A stretch of 62,984 nucleotides of DNA, counting the filler, from Basidiobolus ranarum (Eukaryota), in NCBI GenBank assembly GCA_040143965.1. It is 40 parts of 40 records of this genome, joined end to end, with 100 filler letters (N's around TTAATTAATTAA, not from the genome) between each part and the next. Parts side by side here need not be neighbours in the genome. Positions count along the whole stretch, not along the records: positions 25,293 to 26,770 come from JASJQH010005058.1; positions 26,871 to 28,348 come from JASJQH010005059.1; positions 28,449 to 29,925 come from JASJQH010005060.1; positions 30,026 to 31,502 come from JASJQH010005061.1; positions 31,603 to 33,079 come from JASJQH010005062.1; 35 more parts are not named here. One strand, given 5' to 3'. Position 1 is the first letter of the stretch. Every line of letters begins with the position of its first letter. A program made the position numbers and the translations under genes. Shown piece by piece: positions 1,585 through 55,123 of the stretch. The notes beneath the pieces were generated by a model. It saw nothing but the letters and a program-made list of their open reading frames with translations, was not told the DNA's origin and searched no databases.

Positions 1585-2994
1585 CGAAATAAAATCTTTG
1601 TATGATGATTGTGGTGTAACAACTTCAAACAAGTCTGAAAAAATTAAAAAGGACGTAAAGGTTTGTTCTCCTGAGACTGCAAAGAGGGTTAGTAACGTAA
1701 CAGATCTTAGACGAGAGTTGCCGGAGTTATTTATAAATAATTATTCTCGTGAGTGCCCGAATTTGCCGATAATGGTGTCTGATGATGAAGCCAAAAAGGT
1801 TATAAATATGGGTGGGCGAGTGATCTGTTATCCTTACCCACGTACGAGTTATTCTAGATATTATACTTCACCTGATAAATTCTTTGTTGGCTTAAAAAAG
1901 AATAGGTTATCCAATAGGGATAAATTCTCGCATCTGGTAACTTGTTATACGACGGATCACATGAATAGGCCTGGGAGCGAAACGTATAAATATTATTTTG
2001 GGCAAGACGAGGAGGATAAATCAAGGGGCGAAGGGAAACCAAAAATAATTGGGTCGTTAAGACATCTTGAGGAAGAGAAGATGGGGCCATTACCGAGTGC
2101 GTTAATAGGAAATTTGTGTATCAAGAATACGTATTTCAGGGTTGGTGTTAACCAGGGTCCGTCATCTTTTTTGGCGTCCATTTTGTATGCTTTAAGTCCT
2201 GGGTCGTTTAAAGATATAAAAAATCAGATACGGACGGTGAGGGAGAATTTAAGTTCGGAGGGGTTGGAGATAACAAGGCAAGAGACGTGTGGAATTCCTT
2301 TTGACATGGTAGTTGAGACGTTTAAGGATCCGGAAAAGAATATGGATGGTAAGTATTACTATAGGTTTTTCGAAGAGATGTTTAGCGTGGATATTATTTT
2401 AATAGACGTCACGAAGAGTAAGGGATATGACATTTATATATCCAATAATGGAAAAAATATCTTTGGGAGCAGAAGTTTGATCATGGGATAATAATATTTA
2501 GGAATCAGACAAAGTTGTATCACAAGACAAAAATAACGTATGAGCCTGTGGTATCAGCAAAGGGTGAGATGGTGTTTACAAATGATGATGAGTTGTATTT
2601 GTCATTAATGGACACATAGGGATCTTTACTTCTTAACCCAAAGATAGTTCCAGGGAAGGATGCTTTTTTATTGCATGATCTTGATCATCCTGTGGAGATA
2701 GGGACAAGAAAGGTTAAGGCACAGTATATAAATAAGGATGGTATATCTGTTGCTATACAATGGGACGATGGTACTTTTCAGAGATGCTTTTCAAGACTGC
2801 TATGGAAGGTTCTGATGTTGGATAATCAGCTGTGGAACCCACTTAAGGAGCATCTTAATTTCATGAACAACATTAGGAAGAACTTGGGGTTAAAAAGGAA
2901 ATATTGGAGAAGTTCTGGGGACAAGGTAGTGTATTTACCAAATAGGCAGACAATGGAGAATTATAGGATGTGGTTATATAATGCAAACAAATGA
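1585..2994 (+). pseudogene. Giant-virus (Nucleocytoviricota) early transcription factor large subunit (VETF-L/A7L-like), C-terminal part, disrupted
   Basis: Intronless. Motifs LPELFINNYSREC..P, YYTSP...VGLKKNRLSN..KF..L.TCY, GPLP, YFRVGV..GPSSFL, QE, YYRFFEEMFSVDI, IIIFRN...YEPV and QYINKDG resemble iridovirus/Pimascovirales VETF-L. Frameshift near 2450-2456, in-frame TAG at 2617-2619, 5' end truncated by the contig edge. Confidence 0.75.
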
Positions 2995-25292: not shown

Positions 25293-25553
25293 ATATTGGT
25301 CTGGCCAGGATTTTAACCTGGGGCCTCCTTCACTCTAGCAAGGTGCTCTAACCACTGAGCTACCAGTCCTTGTATGCTATGCCTATATTGCTAGGGAACC
25401 TTAGCCTAATCTGTCAATGTGTGGTATTTTTGGCATTTCAGCTTTACAAGCAACTGATTGGCCTTAGACTTTGTGTTCAGATGCAGTCACCATACTCCAT
25501 ATTTTCCTTTTTGGGAATTACTGCTTGTACCACAAGTCACCAGACTTTCAACA
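25293..25553 (-). mobile_element. tRNA-carrying LTR-like element (family B), 5' part, nested in a family-A-like 3' LTR
   Basis: On the minus strand it starts TGTTGAAAG at 25553, where similarity to LTR A stops. Confidence 0.65.
25297..25369 (-). tRNA. tRNA-like gene, anticodon AGA, short variable loop, inside an LTR-like element
   Basis: Cloverleaf as at 31615-31687 with two substitutions (T-loop TTAAAAT). Confidence 0.7.
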
Positions 25554-26290
25554 ATAACCAGATACTAAGCTATATATGACTACATAGATGTTTAGCAGTG
25601 CTAACTGCAACACTCTCTCTCAACTAAACAGTCATGCAAACTAATCCTAAGGAAGGTCTGAATTTCTAACAAATGTGTCTAGCTACTGGTTTGATTACTA
25701 TATCAGCAATCATGTTATTGGTAGAAGAGTAAGTTAAGTCAATAAACTCATCCTCTATAGTCTTGCTAACAAAATAATATCTAATTTCTAGATATTTTCT
25801 TTAAGCATGAAAAATGGGATATCTAGCAAAATTGCTACCACATTTATTCTCTTGAAATTTCATTGTTGGTGAATTTTTGAGAATATACCAAACCTGTTAA
25901 GAGTCTTTTTAGTCATAAGGCTTCTTCTGCTGCTTCACAAGCAGCCATATATTCTACTGCTGTAGCTGAAAGTCCAATGGCAGCTTATTTCTTTGAATTC
26001 TGATATAAAACTCCATTAGAGCAAAGAACTAGGTATACAGTTGTAGATTGCCTGTTTTCAATATCTCTTCCCCAATTTGCATCCAAATATCCCATCAGAT
26101 CAGAGGTAGATACTGAAAATTTGTATTTAAACACAGATCTACAGTGCCTTTCAAGTATCTAAAAATCCACTAAACTGCTATGATTTCATTTGATCAACAA
26201 CTTGGAAGGTATTAGGATATGACTCCAACAGAATATGCAGTATCTGGCCATGTTCCTGCAATAATACACATTAAACATCTGCCTGTAGAA
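25554..26290 (-). mobile_element. Copia RT/RNase H end, polypurine tract and start of the 3' LTR
   Basis: GYLDANWG...RQSTT, AVEYMAACEAAEEALWL, ADI..KP motifs; PPT AGTTGAGAGAGAG (25613-25625) directly before TGTTG at 25612. Confidence 0.88.
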
Positions 26291-26870
26291 AAATAAAAAA
26301 TTTGTGGCTTTCAATTGAATCCAAGAACATCTGATTTGAGTTGTTTTTAGTCAATTTAAGATTTGTCACCATTTTAAAGGATGGCACAGCAGATATGATG
26401 TCATAATCAAACAATAGAAGAGTTCTATTTGCAGTGGATGAGTATGCCAAGATCAGAATCATGACAGTATCCCCTCCTTTAGTGATGGCTTCCAGACATC
26501 ATAGAGCCAGGTTTTTCTGGCTAGGCTTCATGAAACTCCTTGCAAAGTTCTTTAGAGTTGGAAAGGTTTGTTGCTGGTTCCCATGATTGATTATTTGTTG
26601 AGTATCCCTACCAGTCCACTAAATATTGCAATTTATGTTGATAAATTCTGGAATCTAGAATTTTAATGACTTCATATTCAGAATGTTCTTCTACTTGGAT
26701 TGTGAGGGATGCATCAATAGATTGGCCATAAAAGGTATTTCTGGAATGTGGCTTTAGGAGTGACACATAGNNNNNNNNNNNNNNNNNNNNNNNNNNNNNN
26801 NNNNNNNNNNNNNNTTAATTAATTAANNNNNNNNNNNNNNNNNNNNNNNNNNNNNNNNNNNNNNNNNNNN

Positions 26871-28239
26871 ATAGTGACTTTGGTGACTTTGATAGTCTTC
26901 AAGTATATGCAGTGATCAGCTTTGCTATGATGGAAAAGATATTTTGTGAAGTTCTGATTGATTCTGCTATTCCATGTGAAGGAGCCTGTGTCAGACCATA
27001 TAGACTTCACTGTAGCTTGTATACTTGATGTTCTTTTCCTTTTGCAATATATCCCTCTGATTGATCCATGTATATATCTTCATCAATTTCTCCATTAAGA
27101 AGCACTGTCTTGACATCCATTTGTTCAATCAGCATTCCTTGGTGGGTAGCAATAGCCAAGATTACTTGGATTGAGGTAAACTTAGCAACAGGAGAAAATG
27201 TTTCTTCATAGTCAATGCCATGTTTCTGAGTATACTACCAATCTTGCTTTGTACCAGTTGATAGATCCATCTAGGTTGTGTTTCAGTTTCAGCACCCATC
27301 TATTACCAATAGCTTTTCTTGCAATAGGCAAGTCCACAAGGATCCATGTGTTATTCTTGATTAGGGAGTGAATTTCATTGTCAGTGGCTTTTCTTCATTC
27401 TGTTGCTTCACCAGATTTCAGAGCTTGTGTCAAGTTTTCTGGTTCAGGAAATGCTATGTGTGTAGATATATTCCACCCTGTTTCTTAATTCAATCTGTTG
27501 ATTTCATGCTTTGATTTGAGACATCCAAAGTCCTTGGTAGAATGGTCAGATGTTTCACTTAGAGGATGTTTCTGATTTCCACTTGATAGGATTTCTGAAA
27601 CCTGATTTCCTGAATTTTGTGATTGATAGAATACTTATTATGATTAATTGCATACTTCCAATAATTGATTGCATCCAATATCAGCCAAATTGAGAGTAGG
27701 ATATTTCTTAGGTATATGATTGGTAAGAAAATTATTGCCTTGTTTCTGAGTCAAATATCTTGCTTCCTGATTGGCTGGAAAATATACTTTTTCTGATTAC
27801 CATATTTTTCATTAGCAGAGATAATATGCTGATTTCCAGAAGCTGGTTGCAAATTATCAGTAACCTCAGAGTAATTATCAGGTTTTCTGGTATAAATTGA
27901 TATATTTCTGGTGCTTTCTAATATTTCACCACTCATATAGCTGCTTGATTCCAGAATATCATATAATAGTTTGTTCTCATTGGTTTCAGTACTCATAGTG
28001 AAGTTTGAGACAGGATTATGGCTTGTTGGTTTTCTGCTAAGATTATTCACCACAGGGATTGGTAATGATTTGAGGTTTGACATATATTCATTGATGGCTG
28101 CTGTTTTAGACCTTGTCCCAGATATGATATTTTCTAAATTTGGATAATGTTGATAGATAGTTTCAGATTCCAAATTTGGCCTAATTCCAGTATATATTTC
28201 CAATGTATCATTTTCCAAGTTGGTTTCAGTACTTGTTAG
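26871..28239 (-). mobile_element. Copia RT N-terminus and long integrase-RT linker
   Basis: NNTWILVDLP...AIG.RWVLK, QMDVKTVLLNG, SKADHCIY; LTR C inserted at 28240. Confidence 0.85.
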
Positions 28240-28571
28240 TGTTGAAGTTTATTGTCTTTATCATATATGTTATCCCTATCTTTATACACCTAACTATTTC
28301 ATATATCACATATTAGTTAATCAACATTATTTAGTCAAATATCACTTANNNNNNNNNNNNNNNNNNNNNNNNNNNNNNNNNNNNNNNNNNNNTTAATTAA
28401 TTAANNNNNNNNNNNNNNNNNNNNNNNNNNNNNNNNNNNNNNNNNNNNTCATATTTATTCAAGATTTGACAAAGATCATTTAGCATGTTTATTTACGAAT
28501 TTACACCGTGATTTGGTTGGATGTGACTAGGTTTAACGTATGTTTACAAATATGGTACTTTTGAGTGGTAT

Positions 28572-29531
28572 TTATTCAACCGTAGTAACATACACCATGG
28601 TTGTGGACTCAGCTTGGCTAGGTTTCTCAGTTGGAGTAGTGCTCTGAGTAGCAGTCGCTTCAGGTTGATCACTGGTAGTGGCTGTCTCGACAACAGTAGT
28701 ATCAGCGGGACTACCAGATTGAGAATCGGTAGGTGGAGTTGGGGTTTGTGTACTATTCTTGAGATATGGACAAGCATCCTCAAGATATGTAGCAAGCTTC
28801 CAATCCTTCAGGTCAGCATATTGTGGCTCAAGCTGCTTGATATCTGAATACCAAGTGTCAGCACAAGGAGGGCATAACTGCTCGGGATTTTCTTTCCATT
28901 TTCCAGTAAGGATGATCAGACTCTTGTTAATGTAGAACTGAGTGGCATCGGCAAGGCAATATTTATCATTGGTGCCAGCATTCCCATCACTAGTAGTTTC
29001 GGTACTGTTGTTTGGTAATTTTTCACATGCAAGTTTTCTCCAAGCTCCATAGTCTTTGATTAAAGCGGTAGCACCCTGTACCAAGGATTGTCGTTGGTCT
29101 TTAGAGTTGCAATTACTCTCTAACTGCTTAGAGGCCATGGTTAACGATTCCGATGGACATTCTGGTGCTTGGCATAGCAAGTCCAATCCCTGGGACACAT
29201 AATTGGCAATGTTGACTGGATCGTATACGGTTTGATTCCAGATTGGTAATAGTTGTTGTGCTGGCATGCAAGACTGTGCATTGCCAATGGCAACAATTCC
29301 TTTAATGGTATTCAAACACTTATCACTGATGTTTTCACCCATTTGTCCTATAACACCCTGACCAGGGATGCTGTTGGATGACGTTGGCTCAGTAGATGAT
29401 GAGCTTTGAGTGACAGTTACAACAACTGTCGATTGAGCAGTGGCTGTTGAATCCGATGCCTGAGCCGGAAGGGCTGAAGTGGAGGCAATGACAGTCAAGG
29501 CAGTGGTTAATAGAATGGCAAGAGATTTCAT
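28572..29531 (-). CDS. Secreted Cys-rich protein with Ser/Thr-rich flanks (cell-surface protein-like)
   Basis: Intact ORF; likely start MKSLAILLTTALTVIASTSA at 29531 (the ORF-track start overlaps the TATA box near 29581-29590); about ten spaced Cys in the core. Confidence 0.85.
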   Translation of the reverse strand: MKSLAILLTTALTVIASTSALPAQASDSTATAQSTVVVTVTQSSSSTEPTSSNSIPGQGVIGQMGENISDKCLNTIKGIVAIGNAQSCMPAQQLLPIWNQTVYDPVNIANYVSQGLDLLCQAPECPSESLTMASKQLESNCNSKDQRQSLVQGATALIKDYGAWRKLACEKLPNNSTETTSDGNAGTNDKYCLADATQFYINKSLIILTGKWKENPEQLCPPCADTWYSDIKQLEPQYADLKDWKLATYLEDACPYLKNSTQTPTPPTDSQSGSPADTTVVETATTSDQPEATATQSTTPTEKPSQAESTTMVYVTTVE

Positions 29532-30339
29532 GTTGGAGTAGAGTGTTTGTTGATGGTTGTTACTGATGAAAGGACCGGGCTTTATATATATCACCTAAGC
29601 CGGCCACACTTTATGATACCAATGTTATTAACCTGCTTTAAATGATCATTGCCAAATCAAGACTTAGGATGACCTGTCTCTTCTACCTCCAACATGCCAA
29701 GTATATCTGATCTATTGACATCGGACTATGTTAAGCGTAATCACAAGCGATTTCTTGTTCAAGTCGCTATAACCCAAGAATGTTGTCATCTCAAAGTGGT
29801 TATGGGCCATATAAGGGTTATGCAGTAATTTTGCAGAATTCGGCGAGCATGTTCCGCGCGCGTCCCCCGGAAAAAGTCATAATCGAATTCACGGACCCTA
29901 ATCAGCGCGAAACCAAAAGGCACCGNNNNNNNNNNNNNNNNNNNNNNNNNNNNNNNNNNNNNNNNNNNNTTAATTAATTAANNNNNNNNNNNNNNNNNNN
30001 NNNNNNNNNNNNNNNNNNNNNNNNNCCAAAACTACTAGTGTTTCATAATTAATGAGCCATTGGGCCCAATTGAAATACAGGTTATTGTGTTAGTGAGGGA
30101 CAAATGATTGGCCCAAAAACATGTGAATATCTTGGTTTTACATTTGATTGGGTAAGTTACTGTATAACCTGTTTATTGTTACACATGCAGTAATTGGTAG
30201 GTTACAAACTAGGGGATGTACTTGCTTTGTCAGTTGCCAAAATCTTAATTTGGCAATACTTGATTGGGTTGCTTAGTACAGGCTGGCACAATATCACCAA
30301 AAAAATCATTGTGTCCAATTATAATGGGATAGTGCCATA

Positions 30340-30466
30340 TTGTTCCTTATAGTGTCAGATCAAGTCTGATTGGACCTAGCCATGGTCATTGACAGATTGT
30401 GCCAGATGGTGTGATAGCAAGCTGGATCAGGTGGCATGATCTGACCTGGTCTAACAGAACAAGTCT
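30340..30466. mobile_element. PHIS-type element terminus ending AGAACAAGTCT
   Basis: Matches 6333-6458; flanked by ATT. Confidence 0.7.
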
Positions 30467-30613
30467 ATTACTAACATTGGGCTGAAAATGTCTCTACCAG
30501 TGTGTAAATAAAAAACAGATTCCAAAAAAGATTGCACAAGAGGCTACGGGGTTTAAAGCCCTCTATGAATGAAAACCAAGTGTTGATAAACATGGGATCT
30601 TTAGTTCAATAAC

Positions 30614-31502
30614 AGACTTGTTCTATTTTATTGAGCCAGATCAGGCCAGCTAAAAAGTGTGCCAGCACAAATTGCCATGATTGGTACTATCTGGCGCAAT
30701 GTTATTTACCATTTTGGAAACAGTTTATTTTGCTTATGTGCTGTTTTTAAGAAAAGTACTTTTAGACATTACTGCACATTCAAAAGATGATGAAAGCTTT
30801 TTCTACTTTGATTGAGGCCCACAAAATGATTTTCCACTATACTTTCCTGCTACAATGCTATATCTCTTTAGCAAACCAACGCTATGTTCTACTCATGCTC
30901 TAAAATAGGAAAAAATGACATTATAAAGCTTTTGCCTCTCTATGAGTATCCCTCCTCTGGGCCTCTTGTTAGCAGTGACACATCCTAGCCTTCTGCATTC
31001 TTGCCCAACACATACCAAATCAGCCATAGTCTTCCTATATCTTACAAATGGTGCATGCCTCTCAACCCAAAGCCTTTTGTCATGATGTCTCCCTGGATGC
31101 GGCCCACTAAACCAAATGATATTTCCTTTCAAATGTGTCAAAGCTGGAAACTTTACATAGTGGGCTTTGTACTTGCCAGAAGAGAATAGCTATTGGTTAC
31201 TTTTGGGCCTGTTAATTCTGACTGGAAATGTGTCAAGAATACTCCTGACATGAAGTCCATTAGGAAATACTCCAGGAAATGGAAGGATATTAGAGTTTCT
31301 AAATCTTTTGTCCCAGGCATCTTCAACATCATTCATCACTGAAGCTGGATAATTCTCACTTACTTGAAGCCTGGTATGGAAGCTTCTCCCCCTTTTGCTA
31401 CCATTAATAGTGCACTGAAATCTGATTGGATAATAGTTTTTGTAGTAACAAAACAAATTGACTAGCTGCTTTCTGGTAGGTATTGGAGTATATGAGCCAC
31501 AG
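30614..31502 (-). mobile_element. PIF/Harbinger-superfamily transposase remnant with one terminus (AGACTTGTTC)
   Basis: ILDTFPVRINRP, SGKYK.H..K, G.IIWFSGPHPGRHHD, MADL, KRPRG, YN......RA.VEH.VG are DDE_Tnp_4 motifs; TIR at 30614. Confidence 0.88.
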
Positions 31503-31614
31503 NNNNNNNNNNNNNNNNNNNNNNNNNNNNNNNNNNNNNNNNNNNNTTAATTAATTAANNNNNNNNNNNNNNNNNNNNNNNNNNNNNNNNNNNNNNNNNN
31601 NNCATAGCATACAA

Positions 31615-31687
31615 GGACTGGTAGCTCAGTGGTTAGAGCACCTTGCTAGAGTGAAGGAGGTCCCAGGTTCAAATCCTGGCCAGACCA
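31615..31687 (+). tRNA. tRNA-like gene, anticodon AGA (nominally Ser) but with a class-I short variable loop
   Basis: GGACTGG-TA-GCTC-AGTGGTTA-GAGC-A-CCTTG-CTAGAGT-GAAGG-AGGTC-CCAGG-TTCAAAT-CCTGG-CCAGACC-A; A and B boxes present; one mismatch each in the acceptor and anticodon stems. Confidence 0.75.
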
Positions 31688-31713
31688 ATATTTCTCCCTA
31701 AATAATTTCAATA

Positions 31714-32755
31714 ATGATAGCAGCCTTCCATCAATTACTTCTGCAAGGACTGGACTAAATTTCTTGATTGTTGGGATAGAGTGGGATCTGACAAAGGCAG
31801 AGTCAATAACACAGGAGGAAGCACCTGAAACAAGAAGTGCAGTTGTTTTTATTGACTTGGAACTTGGAAGCAGGAGTGCAATGGGCAGCTTTAATGATTG
31901 GTATGACTGCAGAGATTGTGAAGTATGGTGAAGAAGTATTTTTGAAGATGGTTGGGCCAGCTGCATGCCCATTGGACTTGTTCTCTGTGATAGTGCCAGA
32001 TTGTGCTGTATATATCATATTGGATAAAGTATTCTAAAATTTATGCAGCACAATTTGGCACCATCCATCACCCTCTGGCATGATCAATTTCAATCACATT
32101 TACTCTGATATATTGATACAAGGTCTGATAAATCTTGGCACAATGGAACAAGTCCATTATTGCAGCTGGTTGTTGAAGTTTTCTAATGGTTGGGAAGAGT
32201 TTTCTTCTACTTGCATATTGTTGATCTTAAATCCACAATTCTTTTTTGGACAGGTTCTTGCTACATGTCCAGGAGCTCCACAATAGAGGCATGGATTATC
32301 TTGTTGTTGTCAATATTTCTTCTCAGGGCTAAGCCTTCTGAATCAAGTTCCATCAATTTGCATTGGGTCATCTGCTTGAGCTGTATTTTCTGCTTGATGG
32401 AAGGGATGTCTGAAAGTAGATGAGGAAGAAGAGAAGAGAGGGGCCAAATTTTGTTGCTGTTGTCTTTCAAAAAACCAGTTGTCACATTTAACTGCCTGAT
32501 GGATAGCATCAGTCAAGGTCACTGGGTCAGCCATAGTTAGTAAGAGATCCTTGATATTTTCTTGGAGCCCTTATTGGAATTGATTGATTAGGGAAGATTC
32601 TCTCCAATTAAGATCACAGGCAAGAAGGCAGAATTCTGCTGCATAAATTGATGCAGGCTTTGACCCTTGTTTAAGTGCACAGAGTTTGGTGGCTGGAGTT
32701 CTTTCCTTATCTGGATTTCCAAATGTAGTTTCCAGATGAGACTGAAGTCTGAACA
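31714..32755 (-). mobile_element. Ty3/gypsy gag-protease remnant
   Basis: LKQGSKPASIYAAEF, DDPMQID, zinc-knuckle remnant, ALLVSGASSCVID, EVIDGR. Confidence 0.88.
31974..32155. mobile_element. 182-bp MITE, TIR GGACTTGTTC, TSD ATT
   Basis: GGACTTGTTC...GAACAAGTCC flanked by ATT/ATT. Confidence 0.92.
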
Positions 32756-36330: not shown

Positions 36331-37760
36331 NAAACTTTGATCCTATCTTGAATTGCTCATTCATATTGAATTTTCCACTATATAGCTGAGTAAGTAGTAT
36401 TGGAATGTTGTTGAATAGTAAGTGCATAGTGCCTTATGGGAAGCTCTGGCTCCAGCTGATCCCCTTTAGCAATATAATCTTAGGCTTACAGCGAATACCA
36501 AGTTTGATGTTAGACTGACTATTTGGGAATTGTTATCAATGATCATGTTGAAATCTGACCGGGCTCTTGACGGTAAAATCATGAAGTTTAGTGTTGTATT
36601 TGGATAGTAGTAATGCATATGCCTGACAGAGTCAACTCCATTGATTTGACAAAATATACAGTAAGAAAGTGCATTGGGCCCACAAAAACCTCCAGGTTTA
36701 CTGATGGCAGGTGTGTCACCAATGCATTCATTGATATTAGCTTTAGTAAAATATTCACCCATCTGAACCCCATTGGATAACCATTTAAATTTCACAATCA
36801 AAGGCGCCAAGAAGCTATCTCTAAGCCCTGGGGATTTAGGTCCAGATATGATGGATAGTGTCCAATAGTGTGACTCTTACACCATTCAGAAAGAGGAAGA
36901 TTTAAGTTAATTTAATACTCCACCTGCAAGCCTTTCCAACAGTATATTTGTTTAGCAAGAAACCATCCAGAGCCAATGCAAATGCAAGGTCATATGTGTT
37001 CTTAAAGAAACCTTGACTTTTCAGATTCTAGTAGTGATATCCATCAAGTATGTTTGTAATACTATCAGCTTTATGGTGAGTACTTTGGTATTGGATCAAT
37101 GATCTATATTTGGGTGACTTCATCAAAATTTTACGGCAGGAAATCAAAGGTATGTAAGCCATATATGAGTGATATTTACCTGATTCTGTGATTGGCAATT
37201 GTGTGCAAACAGTACATGACTTCAGGATTTTCAGATCACTGGTGAAGGCCAAACAACCATTTGGATATGAAGGCAGTTTAATTACTGAAGGATTATAAGT
37301 CATACAATTGATAAGTGTTTTCCACTTGTGCCAGGATTGCAGCAAGCAACAGTTGCTAAGCAACTGTATTAAAAGTTTAAGGAAACCAATAAACACCTGG
37401 TTGCTAAGATTGGATTGAACTCTCCACTCCTTAATAATCAAAACTGCTTCCTTTACTGTAACTGTTATGAGCAGACTAATGCTTTCCAATAATAAAGAGT
37501 CCATAACAAAACTGTCATCTTTTTCTTCAAGTTCCAATATATCACCATCAGTGCTGGAATAACTGAGGTCAACATCTAGCAGCATGTGCTCAAAGTAGTC
37601 TGGACTTACAGGTTTAAACAGAGTTGCATTTATATCTATGTTATTCTGGTCATATAACTGTGGTAACTCCATGGTAGCTTGTCTTTTGGCAGTGTTACCA
37701 AAACTTTGAGGCAAACTACAGTCAGTGGACTCAATAGGCAAAAATAAAGTCAGTACTCCC
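36331..37760 (-). mobile_element. CMC/EnSpm transposase N-terminal half
   Basis: PNGCLAF...CTVC...YIPL, ILDG, ALALDGF, GDTPA.SK..GF.G.N...C..C. Confidence 0.88.
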
Positions 37761-37907
37761 CCAATTATGTAGTAAATCAATAGTTGAGCAAAGTTCAACT
37801 GAAACACNNNNNNNNNNNNNNNNNNNNNNNNNNNNNNNNNNNNNNNNNNNNTTAATTAATTAANNNNNNNNNNNNNNNNNNNNNNNNNNNNNNNNNNNNN
37901 NNNNNNN

Positions 37908-44208: not shown

Positions 44209-45614
44209 CAGATATTAAATTCTTAGCAATATCTGGAATGTGTAGTACATCTTTAAAAGTATACACTTTTGCTTCAGATGCTCCAGTTAAATTGACTTGA
44301 ATTGTTCCCATTTCAATAGCACCCAGTGTGCAGTCATCTCCCATGAAAACTGTTCTAATTGGGATTTCTTCATAGTCCACAAGCCAATGCTTTTTGTTTG
44401 TAAAATGTTGTGAGGCTCCAGAATCAATATACCACATCTGAAAATCCTGTTGGTAGTCATAGATAAGGAAGATATGAACAAGTGATCTTTGGTTATAACT
44501 GCATTTCCAGATTCAGTATGTTTTTCTTCTTTTGCAATTTCTTTAAAGCAATCTTTACTTAAATGGCTAGTTCTTTTACAGTAATCACAGAATGCATTAC
44601 TTTTCTTCTTAATGTGCTTTTGACCTTTATAGGAAGGTTTCCCATAGCCTATTAAAGCATTTTCTTCATTCTTTTGGTTGGATCCTAATTTACATAAATC
44701 TTCATCCAGAAGTCTGCCAAATACATAATTTAAGGTCCAATTTTCAGTTCTTGATTCTAGAGCCATTACCAGGCTCCAAACTTGTGTGGCAGGCTATTCA
44801 GGCTGGTAACTATGATATCTAGATCAGTAGTAGGTAATCCAATGCATAGCATTTCATCCACTAAAATGATGACTCTTTTAATTAGTGATTAAATGTCTTC
44901 TCCTGGCTTCATCTTGAAGTTAAATAATTGTCTTCTTAAAACATCTTGTTGGCAGCAGAACCTGTTTGGTAGGTGTCTTCCAAGGCTTTCCATACCTTCT
45001 TGACAGTTTTTGCTCTTGAACATTGAATTAACAATTTGTCTTTACATTAAGACAAATGGTGTTAAAGGCACTATGTTCTTGTTTAACCTGGAGTAAAACT
45101 TTGGCTTGAGATAGTTTTGTATTGTATTCTTTGCCTAAAACAATGTTACAAAGTCCTTTTTCTTGCAGCAGCTTTTTCATTTAAACTTTTCAAACTTGAT
45201 AATTGGTTCCATCCAATTTTTCAGAAGAGGGAAAAGTTCCATAAATCTGAGAAGTAGACATTAAAGAGAGTGCAAACTTGGGGCTCATAACCTGTTAAAG
45301 TATTTGGGAGCCTCTTAGTAGTGGTTTGGAGAATTTAAGGAACTGGTGGTTTTCACTTATTGATTTATTGAGTAAAAAGTTGATATTTATAGTTTTGTCA
45401 AGATGTAAACAAGCTAACATGTAGAATATGTTAAGGAGGTTCCAGGAACATGTGTGCAATGCTTAGGGCTTCTAGCACAAGTTATCAAAATCTATATATC
45501 TTCAAACTTCTAAGTAAATGAAGAATAATTTAAAATATCTTAGTAAATTACAAGATAACTAAGTACTAAGCTCTATAAGACTATATAGGTGCTTATGCAA
45601 TGCTAATTTCAACA
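44209..45614 (-). mobile_element. Copia family A 5' end: LTR (45293-45614), PBS (45281-45292), gag-protease
   Basis: LTR TGTTG...TAACA, PBS GGTTATGAGCCC, gag ATG at 45261 (KLDGTNYQV), CDYCKRTSHLSKDC knuckle, WYIDSGASQH. Confidence 0.95.
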
Positions 45615-48930: not shown

Positions 48931-49972
48931 ACCATCACATCTATTCCCTAAACCTTTAATCGCCTGGCTCCCATAGCCTATTAAACTACTTTCTTCATTC
49001 TTTTGGTTGAATCCAAATTTGCATCAATCTTCATTCAAAAGTCTGCCATATACATAATTTAAGGACAAATTTTCAGTTCTTGATTCTGGAGCCATTACTA
49101 GGCTCTGAAACTTGTGTGGCAGGCTATTCAGGACTGTAACTATGATATCTTGATCAGTGGTAGGTACCCCAATGCATTCCATTTTATACACTCAAATAGT
49201 AACTCTATTAATTAGTGAGTTTATGTCTTCTCCTGGCTTCATCTTTAAGTTAGAGAATTGTCTTCTTAGAAACATCTTGTTAGCAGCAGAGCTTGTTTGG
49301 TAGGTGGCTTTTAAGGCTTTACATACCTTCTTGGGAGTTTTAGCTCTTGAACATTGAATTAGCAACTTGCCTTTCATATTAAGACAAATTGTGTTAAAGA
49401 CACTTTGTTCTTTTTTAACCTGGAGTAAAACTTTGATTTCAGATAGTTTTGCATTGTTTTCTTCACCTACAACAGTGTCCTAAAGATCTTTTTCTTGCAA
49501 CAACATCTTCATTTCAATTTTCCAAACTTGATAATTGGTTCCATCCAAATTTCCAGAGGAGGGAAAAGTTCCATAAATTTGAGAAGTAGACATTACAGAG
49601 AGTGCAAGCTTGGGGCTCATAGCCTGTTAGAATATTTGGGAGCCTGTTGGAAGTGGTTTGGAGAATTAGAGGAATTGGTGGTTTTCACTTATTGATTTAT
49701 TGAGTAGAATGTTGATATTTATAGGTTTGTCAAGATGTAAACAAGCAAACTTGTACAATGTGTTAAGGAAGGTCCCATGAATGTGTGTGCAAAGTTTGGG
49801 GCTTCTAGCACAGGTTTGAAAAATTCATATATGTGAGAACTTCTAAGTTGGTTTCAGTATTCCAAGTAAATTCCAATTAGGAATAAAGGATAATATCTTA
49901 GCAAATTATAAGATAACTAAGTACTAAGCTATATATTATTATGTAGATGTTTAGGCAATGCTAATTTCAACA
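48931..49972 (-). mobile_element. Copia family A 5' end: LTR (49625-49972), PBS, gag
   Basis: Paralogous to 44630-45614. Confidence 0.93.
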
Positions 49973-53650: not shown

Positions 53651-55123
53651 TGAAAGATGCAGCAGGCAATGTATTGAATACCGGCATAGATTCAGTCTAT
53701 CTTTAAACTTGTAATAAAGTTTTTTGTACCCAATTACAAACTCTTTGCACAGTCACTGTATCTGCCTGAGATCTGCCAATGTGAGTTGATGCCATAAGAA
53801 TATATTAACAATATCCACAAACAACTCCCAATGTTGCCAATACTTAACAGGCTGAAATCTTTTTGAAATTCCACTTGAATATACACAAATCCAATATGTC
53901 CAGTCTTTGCATTTGAATAAACACCTAGATGAGTGGATATTGATGGGAGTCCTGGTAAAATATGATGGTATCTTGACATTTTCAAGCATATTCCCAATTG
54001 ATTCAAACTTTAATTCTATCTTGAATGGCTCATTCAAATTGCACTTTCCATGATATAGCAGAGTAAGTAGTATTGGAATGTTGTTGAATAGTAAGTGTAT
54101 AGCTCCTAATGGGAAGCTCTGGCTCCAGCTGATCCCCTTTAGCAATATAATCTTAGGCTTATGGCTAATATCAAGTTTGATGTTAGACTGACTATTTGGT
54201 GAATTGATATCAGTGGTCATATTGAAATCTGACTCGGCTTTTGACAGTAAAATCACAAAGTTTAGCGTTGTATATAGATAGCAGTAATGCGTATGCCTGT
54301 TAGAGTAAACTCCATTGATTTGACAGAATCTACAGCAAGATAGTGCATTGTGCCCACAAAAACCTCCAAGTTTACTGATAGCAGGGGTGTCACCAATACA
54401 TACAATGATATCAGCTTTAATAAAAAATTCACCCATCTGAACTACATTAGATAACCGTTCAAATTCTGCAATCAAAGGCTCCAAGAAGCTATCTATAAGC
54501 ACTGGTGATTTAGGACCAGATATGATGGAAAGTATAAAAATATTATGACTCTTATACCATTCAGAAGGAGGAAGATTTAAGTTGATTAAAATTATTGGCC
54601 AGCAAGCCTTTCCAACTATATATTTGTTTAGTGAGAAACCATCTAGAGCCAATGCAAATGCATGATCACACATGTTCTCAAAGAAACCTTGACTTTTCAA
54701 ATTCTGGTAGTGATATCCATCAAGTATATTGGTAACACCATCAGCTTTACAGTGAGTACTTTGGTATTGGATCCATGATCTATATTTGGGTGATTTCAGC
54801 AACACTTTGAGATGGGGAATCAATGGTATATAAGCTAAATATGATCAATATTTACCTGATTTAGTGATTGCCAATTGTGTGCAAACAGTACATGACTTCA
54901 GGTTTTTTGGATCAGTGGTGAAAGCCAAACAACCATTTAGACAGAAAGGTAGTTTAATTACTGAAGGATTATAAGTCATACGATTGACAAGTGTTTTCCA
55001 CTTGTACCAGGACTGTGGCAAGCAACAGTTGCCAATCAACTGTGGTAAAAGTGTAAGAAACCAATAAACACCTGGTTGCTAAGATTGGATTGAACTCTCC
55101 ACTCCTCAATAATCAAAGCTGCT
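53651..55123 (-). mobile_element. CMC/EnSpm transposase core, best preserved copy (356-aa open frame)
   Basis: ALALDGF...WPIILINLNLPP..Y...NI....IISGPKSP..DSFLEPLI.EF..L, GDTPA..KL.GF.GHN...CRFC. Confidence 0.92.

Follow-up and report, generated by a model that had tools for sequence, protein, structure and literature searches.

The stretch of DNA analysed here (the window, 62,984 bases in total) comes from the Basidiobolus ranarum genome assembly GCA_040143965.1 and consists of 40 contigs of 1471–1484 bp, sorted by length and joined with 100-nt spacers. ARAGORN makes exactly two transfer RNA (tRNA) calls in it, both Ser(AGA) and both 73 nt long, at 25297–25369 on the minus strand (contig 17) and at 31615–31687 on the plus strand (contig 21). 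With the Rfam tRNA model, whose gathering score is 29, these two modules reach 56.4 and 58.6 bits, and a permissive Rfam scan (E ≤ 5) found no further tRNA-like sequence in the 62,984 bases. Both modules lie in fragments of a repeat that is inserted in other transposons and has the ends of a long terminal repeat (LTR), and it is this repeat that concerns us here. An earlier note on this DNA had reported the same 73-nt tRNA-like sequence in two contigs, and this is borne out by ARAGORN, by Rfam and by an alignment of the two copies over 89 nt with two differences (97.75% identity, E 1e-39).

Cytosolic tRNA-Ser requires a long variable arm. The variable loop of the module is 5 nt, i.e., a short variable arm, and in both copies the Rfam tRNA model shows non-standard pairs at 3:70 and 31:39, so the long variable arm and fully paired stems of a functional tRNA-Ser are both lacking. 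Because of the short arm and the mismatched pairs, the module is tRNA-derived and incapable of acting as a working tRNA-Ser gene. To say that the repeat carries "its own tRNA gene", as the note did, is thus inapt in the functional sense; what it carries is a Ser anticodon on a short-variable-arm body with two mismatched pairs. In copy 2 the boxes of an internal RNA polymerase III (Pol III) promoter are present as TAGCT...TGG (box A, TAGCTCAGTGG, 31622–31632) and GGTTC (box B, GGTTCAAATCC, 31666–31676), matching the motifs TRGCY, YGG and GGTTC given for Helenus elements by Kojima (2024, PMC10886601). The module, in sense orientation within the LTR, is by its features a degenerate one that retains putative Pol III boxes A and B and no longer specifies a usable tRNA.

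Merged, the two fragments give a unit of 283 bp, made up of a 184-nt 5′ arm (25370–25553, minus strand; presumably U3), the module at unit positions 185–257 and a 26-nt 3′ tail (31688–31713, plus strand). Copy 1 (25293–25553, minus strand) supplies positions 1–261; it starts with TGTTGAAA at 25553 and meets the contig end at 25293, 4 nt past the module. Copy 2 (31603–31713, plus strand) supplies positions 173–283, from the contig start 12 nt before the module to its end in ...TTTCAATA at 31713. Since a contig end cuts each copy, only 12 nt upstream and 4 nt downstream of the module are common to both. The "identical flanks" claimed earlier extend over that distance only. The merged unit claimed earlier, both of whose ends were verified, comes to 283 bp instead of the ~285 bp proposed, and the tRNA does end about 26 nt from one terminus, the tail being exactly that long.

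Both outer boundaries of the unit were confirmed independently against homologues. At the 5′ boundary (25553/25554), seven other copies of the host LTR in six contigs align to 25554–25612 and then continue together; contig 17, on the minus strand, departs from them after 59 nt (25612–25554) and switches to TGTTGAAAGTC... These 59 nt (25554–25612, minus strand) are the start of a Copia 3′ LTR of a ~348-bp family, interrupted by copy 1. The purine run GAGAGAGAG (25613–25621, minus strand) lies directly upstream of the interrupted LTR, in the position of a polypurine tract (PPT), and may have had that role. At the other end, copy 2 breaks off a gypsy-type element, of which contig 21 holds, on the minus strand, a gag region (Retrotrans_gag below cut-off) with a zinc knuckle (zf-CCHC, E 8.4e-5; 32157–32309) and then the degenerate N-terminal part of a retropepsin ("LVSGAS"; 31714–32014), recognized by homologue search. 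This truncated protease open reading frame (ORF) has no Pfam match and, by tblastn, no paralogue in the window. A search for retropepsin-like sequences among 1.84 billion representatives (E ≤ 0.001) returned 54 matches, in 47 of which the best-matching stretch stops at residue 99–103 of the minus-strand ORF, and residue 101 spans 31714–31712. Two fetched homologues go on with "DGRPLASGNITMET"; the corresponding residues of the window are "DGRLLS", after which the sequence is unrelated, and the 3′ boundary accordingly falls at 31713/31714, give or take ~3 nt. The LTR alignments and the protease homologues agree with the earlier claim that the copies interrupt a Copia 3′ LTR and a gypsy protease.

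The LTR interrupted by copy 1 belongs to a family resident in the window, 348 bp long (322–349 across the four copies defining it). A solo LTR of 348 bp in contig 34 (53093–53440, minus strand), lying inside a gypsy reverse transcriptase/ribonuclease H ORF, is flanked by the perfect 5-bp duplication CTTAC, and another copy in contig 7 has ATAGC/AAAGC (four of five matching). In contigs 29 and 32 the LTR is a 5′ LTR, directly followed by a 16-mer resembling a primer-binding site (PBS), GGTTATGAGCCCCAAG (45277–45292 and 49609–49624, minus strand), and then by Copia gag domains (Retrotran_gag_2, E 1.7e-14; DUF4219; Pol_BBD, E 4.7e-22). In keeping with Kojima's description, GGTTATGAGCCCCAAG would be a PBS of the kind whose pairing partner is the initiator tRNA-Met anticodon loop; by eye, the tRNA-like module is not complementary to it. 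With PBS, Copia gag and a 5-bp duplication all found, the host repeat at 25554–25612 classifies as a Copia-superfamily LTR. In contig 4 (4806–5199) a copy of the LTR lies directly beside a partial, inverted repeat of its first ~98 nt, the arms being 83% complementary and 198 nt apart, and resembles a miniature inverted-repeat transposable element (MITE). The idea that the host repeat as such is a MITE, on account of these 98-nt inverted arms, was rejected, as four copies define a 348-bp LTR with PBS and Copia gag.

It is only in its termini that the unit resembles this Copia LTR. The first 8 nt of the two are identical, and in the three best copies the unit's last 20 nt align with the last 18 nt of the LTR at 15–16 identical positions, with two to three mismatches and two gaps of 1 nt each, an alignment equalled by only 14 of 2,000 shuffles. 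The remainder is unrelated, nothing tRNA-like is present in the Copia LTR, and the 184-nt arm has no similarity to other LTRs beyond its first 8 nt. An 11-nt match to the unit start in another contig (at 58027, in the contig with an SDR gene) was set aside as chance, its score of 22 comparing with a shuffle mean of 18.5 and a maximum of 24. The unit thus has the termini seen on other LTRs here, as the note had said, those of the resident Copia family. The note's reading of the terminal ...CAATA as a mutated ...CAACA must be dropped, since ...CAATA recurs in both of the metagenome families described below (one of three family-A copies has ...CTGATA). A non-autonomous partner of the Copia family would be expected to show just this, a sharing of the ends recognized by integrase and reverse transcription and of nothing else, and the pattern points to an LTR mobilized by Copia. 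That the unit is mobile is shown by its presence in two different transposons and by ends that copy those of the resident Copia LTR.

Probably both fragments derive from one ~283-bp LTR, of which they represent the left and the right part, and this LTR is of the Helenus (TRIMp3) type, non-autonomous and dependent on Copia; it may be a solo LTR or stand at an end of its element. According to Kojima (PMC10886601), Helenus comprises LTR retroelements of miniature size that have a tRNA-like sequence inside the LTR, known from 113 families in Pucciniales and a few in Agaricomycetes. The fungal members make 5-bp duplications, are linked to Copia and have a Copia-type PBS, mostly matching the initiator tRNA-Met anticodon loop; many families survive only as solo LTRs, and the predicted tRNAs are mostly non-functional. 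The same account groups Helenus, Ajax and Cassandra as TRIMp3 and calls Pol III use unproven for Helenus. A literature search, judged by titles and abstracts, found no other paper describing Helenus.

Measured against this published description, the window unit is like Helenus in having a tRNA-like sequence inside an LTR (positions 185–257 of 283), boxes A and B conserved in copy 2, a predicted tRNA that would be non-functional (a Ser anticodon on a short-variable-arm body) and a probable link to Copia, whose resident LTR makes 5-bp duplications. It differs in that paired LTRs, PBS and PPT are not seen in the window unit, each copy being cut by a contig end; in that the fungal hosts published there belong to Pucciniales, with a few Agaricomycetes, whereas early-diverging fungi are indicated by the two typed genic contigs of the window; and in that its ends resemble those of its Copia partner, whereas Kojima reports the LTRs of LTR-1_PTrit and Copia-9_PGr to be dissimilar (PMC10886601). 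Cassandra, a group of miniature retrotransposons with terminal repeats (TRIMs) in plants, has, in each of the two LTRs of its small elements, a gene for a small RNA of Pol III type, and so also a borrowed internal promoter (PMC10886601). Its gene is for 5S ribosomal RNA and not tRNA, it is found only in plants and has no sequence relation to the window unit, and no 5S match was found in the window by Rfam (E ≤ 5). The likeness to Cassandra that the note had put forward is nevertheless sound, being the published concept of Helenus/TRIMp3 (PMC10886601); its novelty was overrated. The unit is a further example of a published kind of element, real and mostly ordinary.

By the likely mechanism, Pol III would start at or near the module in the 5′ LTR and the transcript would continue through a short internal region that holds PBS and PPT. 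Such read-through is suggested by the 26-nt tail, which has no T-run terminator; no run of four or more T was found between the start of the tRNA and the end of the unit (the longest is three). Copia-encoded proteins would package and reverse-transcribe the unit RNA in trans, the resident Copia being the likely protein source, and Copia integrase would recognize the shared termini and insert the copy with a 5-bp target duplication. Recombination between LTRs would then leave solo LTRs, which tRNA finders would report as tRNA-Ser(AGA).

Relatives of the module were found in metagenomes. A 21-nt anticodon-arm pattern had no match in the metagenome collection; a second pattern, 22 nt from the acceptor and D arm, matched six metagenome loci and no viral contigs. 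This pattern makes the first 22 alignment columns identical by construction and forces the conservation of box A. One locus (L003) was rejected as an unrelated run of ordinary tRNAs, and the other five hold a 72–73-nt "Ser(AGA)" module: L001, L002 and L004 form family A, and L005 and L006 family B, the last two being the same locus (94% over 2.5 kb), so that the independent loci number four. The related units are 160–162 bp long in family A and 213 bp in family B; they start with TGTTGG (TTTTGG in L004) and end in CCAATA or CTGATA, a pattern that the window unit also shows (TGTTGAAA...TTTCAATA). The module of the window is ~82%–90% identical to those of the other families, and the arms are unrelated, the 184-nt arm being without similarity to any metagenome locus. 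Box B is kept in all five related loci, L001 has a perfect 5-bp flanking repeat (GCTTG), and all five loci are CpG-poor (observed/expected 0.04–0.35). In seven sequences, six of them distinct, cloverleaf pairing is kept in 88.8% of cells; changes on both sides are seen at two pairs of the T stem and one of the anticodon stem, and pair 31:39 is formed in none of the sequences. A 267-nt repeat, 86% identical, is also shared by L001 (969–1235 in reverse-complement coordinates) and L004 (146–411), on opposite sides of the tRNA-bearing unit, and is probably another solo repeat.

Several observations weigh against a single Helenus-type LTR. The merging rests on an 89-nt overlap of which just 16 nt lie outside the module, and the 184-nt arm occurs once in the window. 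With one end per window copy, no paired LTR, PBS, PPT or target duplication of the unit is visible, and in the window no ...TTTCAATA end has a PBS-like motif after it. One of the two differences between the copies damages box B of copy 1 (GGTTA, not GGTTC), the modules fold no better than shuffles (z −0.40 and −0.23), and Pol III transcription of the unit is a prediction. Among the relatives, only one of the four independent units has a 5-bp flanking repeat; the left boundary of family A is uncertain because its copies are alike over a further ~13 nt before the TGTTGG start; and nhmmer finds no second unit in any of the five related loci, so that all look like solo copies.

The fragments could also come from two LTR families with only the module in common, the 283-bp unit being an artefact of merging. 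The shortness of the common flanks (12 nt upstream and 4 nt downstream), the break of both contigs right at the module and the wholly different arms that metagenome families A and B show around one module would all fit. We nevertheless think this improbable: the two modules are 97.8% identical to each other as against ~82%–90% to those of other families, the 12 upstream nucleotides are identical in the two copies while families A and B differ at those positions, and both outer ends copy one Copia LTR family. It seems quite improbable, too, that the module is an ordinary tRNA-derived short interspersed nuclear element (SINE), dependent on a long interspersed nuclear element (LINE) and lying in LTR debris to which the LTR-like ends belong. 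A SINE of this class (SINE2) is likewise a dispersed repeat with a tRNA-derived module and boxes A and B that is reported as a pseudo-tRNA, Kojima proposes an origin of Helenus by such SINE insertions (PMC10886601), and the assembly breaks bracket the module closely, as if the module alone were the high-copy repeat. The tRNA part of a SINE2, however, stands at the 5′ terminus, and here 184 nt of inserted unit precede the module, so that the note was right not to see a SINE head in what is an inserted LTR-type repeat. There is also no LINE-type, A-rich or simple-repeat tail; the ends are of LTR type, the 26-nt tail ending in a Copia-type terminus exactly at the gypsy protease break; the two copies share 12 nt upstream of the supposed head; and the related units hold the module in their interior, between arms that are conserved to its left as well as to its right.

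That the unit could instead be the LTR of a full-length, protein-coding Copia-like element might be argued from the fact that no internal region, short or long, is seen and that the termini match an autonomous Copia family. This, again, we regard as quite unlikely, for none of the 40 contigs joins the unit LTR to coding sequence, a promoter of Pol III type, as Kojima argues, is fit for short transcripts only, and every tRNA-bearing LTR described in that paper is a miniature element (PMC10886601). The near-inversion of TGTTGAAA and TTTCAATA might suggest a MITE, a small DNA transposon whose 8-nt inverted ends would be imperfect; another proposal is a genuine tRNA gene attracting targeted retrotransposon insertions. 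In no relative is a second LTR seen. Some fungal retroelements do target tRNA genes. Both proposals are very improbable, since the ends match the Copia LTR over 8 and ~20 nt, beyond what inverted repeats need, the flanks are the interiors of other transposons and not the surroundings of a tRNA gene, and the module is defective, without the long variable arm of tRNA-Ser. A Helenus-type LTR moved by Copia is the reading we retain.

The taxonomic source of the element is another matter, as the window contents point in several directions. The SDR gene of contig 37 (56797–57678) is 82% identical to that of Mucor plumbeus. RPS17 in contig 6 (9135–9395) is 100% identical to Basidiobolus, 94%–100% to chytrids, 95%–99% to Glomeromycotina and 91%–95% to Mucorales, and Pucciniales are absent among its best 120 matches. 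Contig 2, which has a normal CpG content, encodes a 301-aa ORF (1586–2488, plus strand) with the giant-virus-type Pfam domain DUF5757 (E 4.9e-21). The Atlas clusters closest to this ORF bear the label Nucleocytoviricota, and some of them carry Pox_VERT_large; contig 2 stems from a giant virus or else contains a viral fragment that has become integrated. Because the typed genes disagree on taxon and a giant-virus-type ORF is present, the assembly is probably mixed. Searches with the Copia integrase are uninformative in this respect, the matches being only 36%–57% identical and the named ones from plants, an oomycete and a sea anemone.

Across all 40 contigs, CpG observed/expected values fall into two classes, 0–0.18 in the transposon contigs (17 and 21 included) and 0.39–0.93 in the remainder, which fits heavy CpG methylation and deamination of repeats. 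Lax et al. (2024, PMC11258239) report that 5-methylcytosine is scarce in Mucor as well as in most Mucoromycota, so the transposon contigs need not come from a Mucor-like organism. Two of the CpG-poor contigs also carry Transposase_21 (tnp2/KDZ-type) ORFs (53756–54844 and 37028–37807, both minus strand), of which only the first has a Pfam match (E 6.9e-17); an Atlas search with such an ORF is split between Basidiomycota and Mucoromycota. Contig 19 encodes a 340-aa ORF (28575–29594, minus strand) with a signal-peptide-like start, Ser/Thr-rich ends, a Cys-rich core and no Pfam family.

LTRs that bear tRNA-like sequences are a practical source of false tRNA genes, and both tRNA calls in this 60-kb sample are of that kind. 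The note's warning that the element would inflate tRNA-Ser(AGA) counts is a documented effect: according to Kojima's paper (PMC10886601), Helenus strongly inflates the counts of tRNA-Thr-AGT, Ser-AGA and Ala-AGC, most predicted tRNA-Ser-AGA genes of rusts are Helenus copies (Table 2), and in Cronartium ribicola this applies to 154 of the 160 Ser-AGA predictions. What the window adds to the fungal example published there is a tRNA-bearing LTR that has both terminal sequences in common with a co-resident Copia family, which is thereby a concrete candidate for the helper element. A further, rather doubtful proposal is that the element belongs to an early-diverging fungus (Mucoromycota- or Zoopagomycota-like) and not to a rust or mushroom, and that the cloverleaf of the module, not just its promoter boxes, is under selection at the RNA level; the latter is suggested by the persistence of the module (same acceptor and D arm, AGA loop) at ~82%–90% identity in at least three LTR families whose arms are unrelated, together with compensatory changes in the T stem. 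If the host is an early-diverging fungus, LTR elements with a tRNA or Pol III promoter would extend beyond Dikarya, and if the cloverleaf is selected, it may, by way of RNase P/Z processing, define where the genomic RNA has its 5′ end, or act by tRNA mimicry in packaging.

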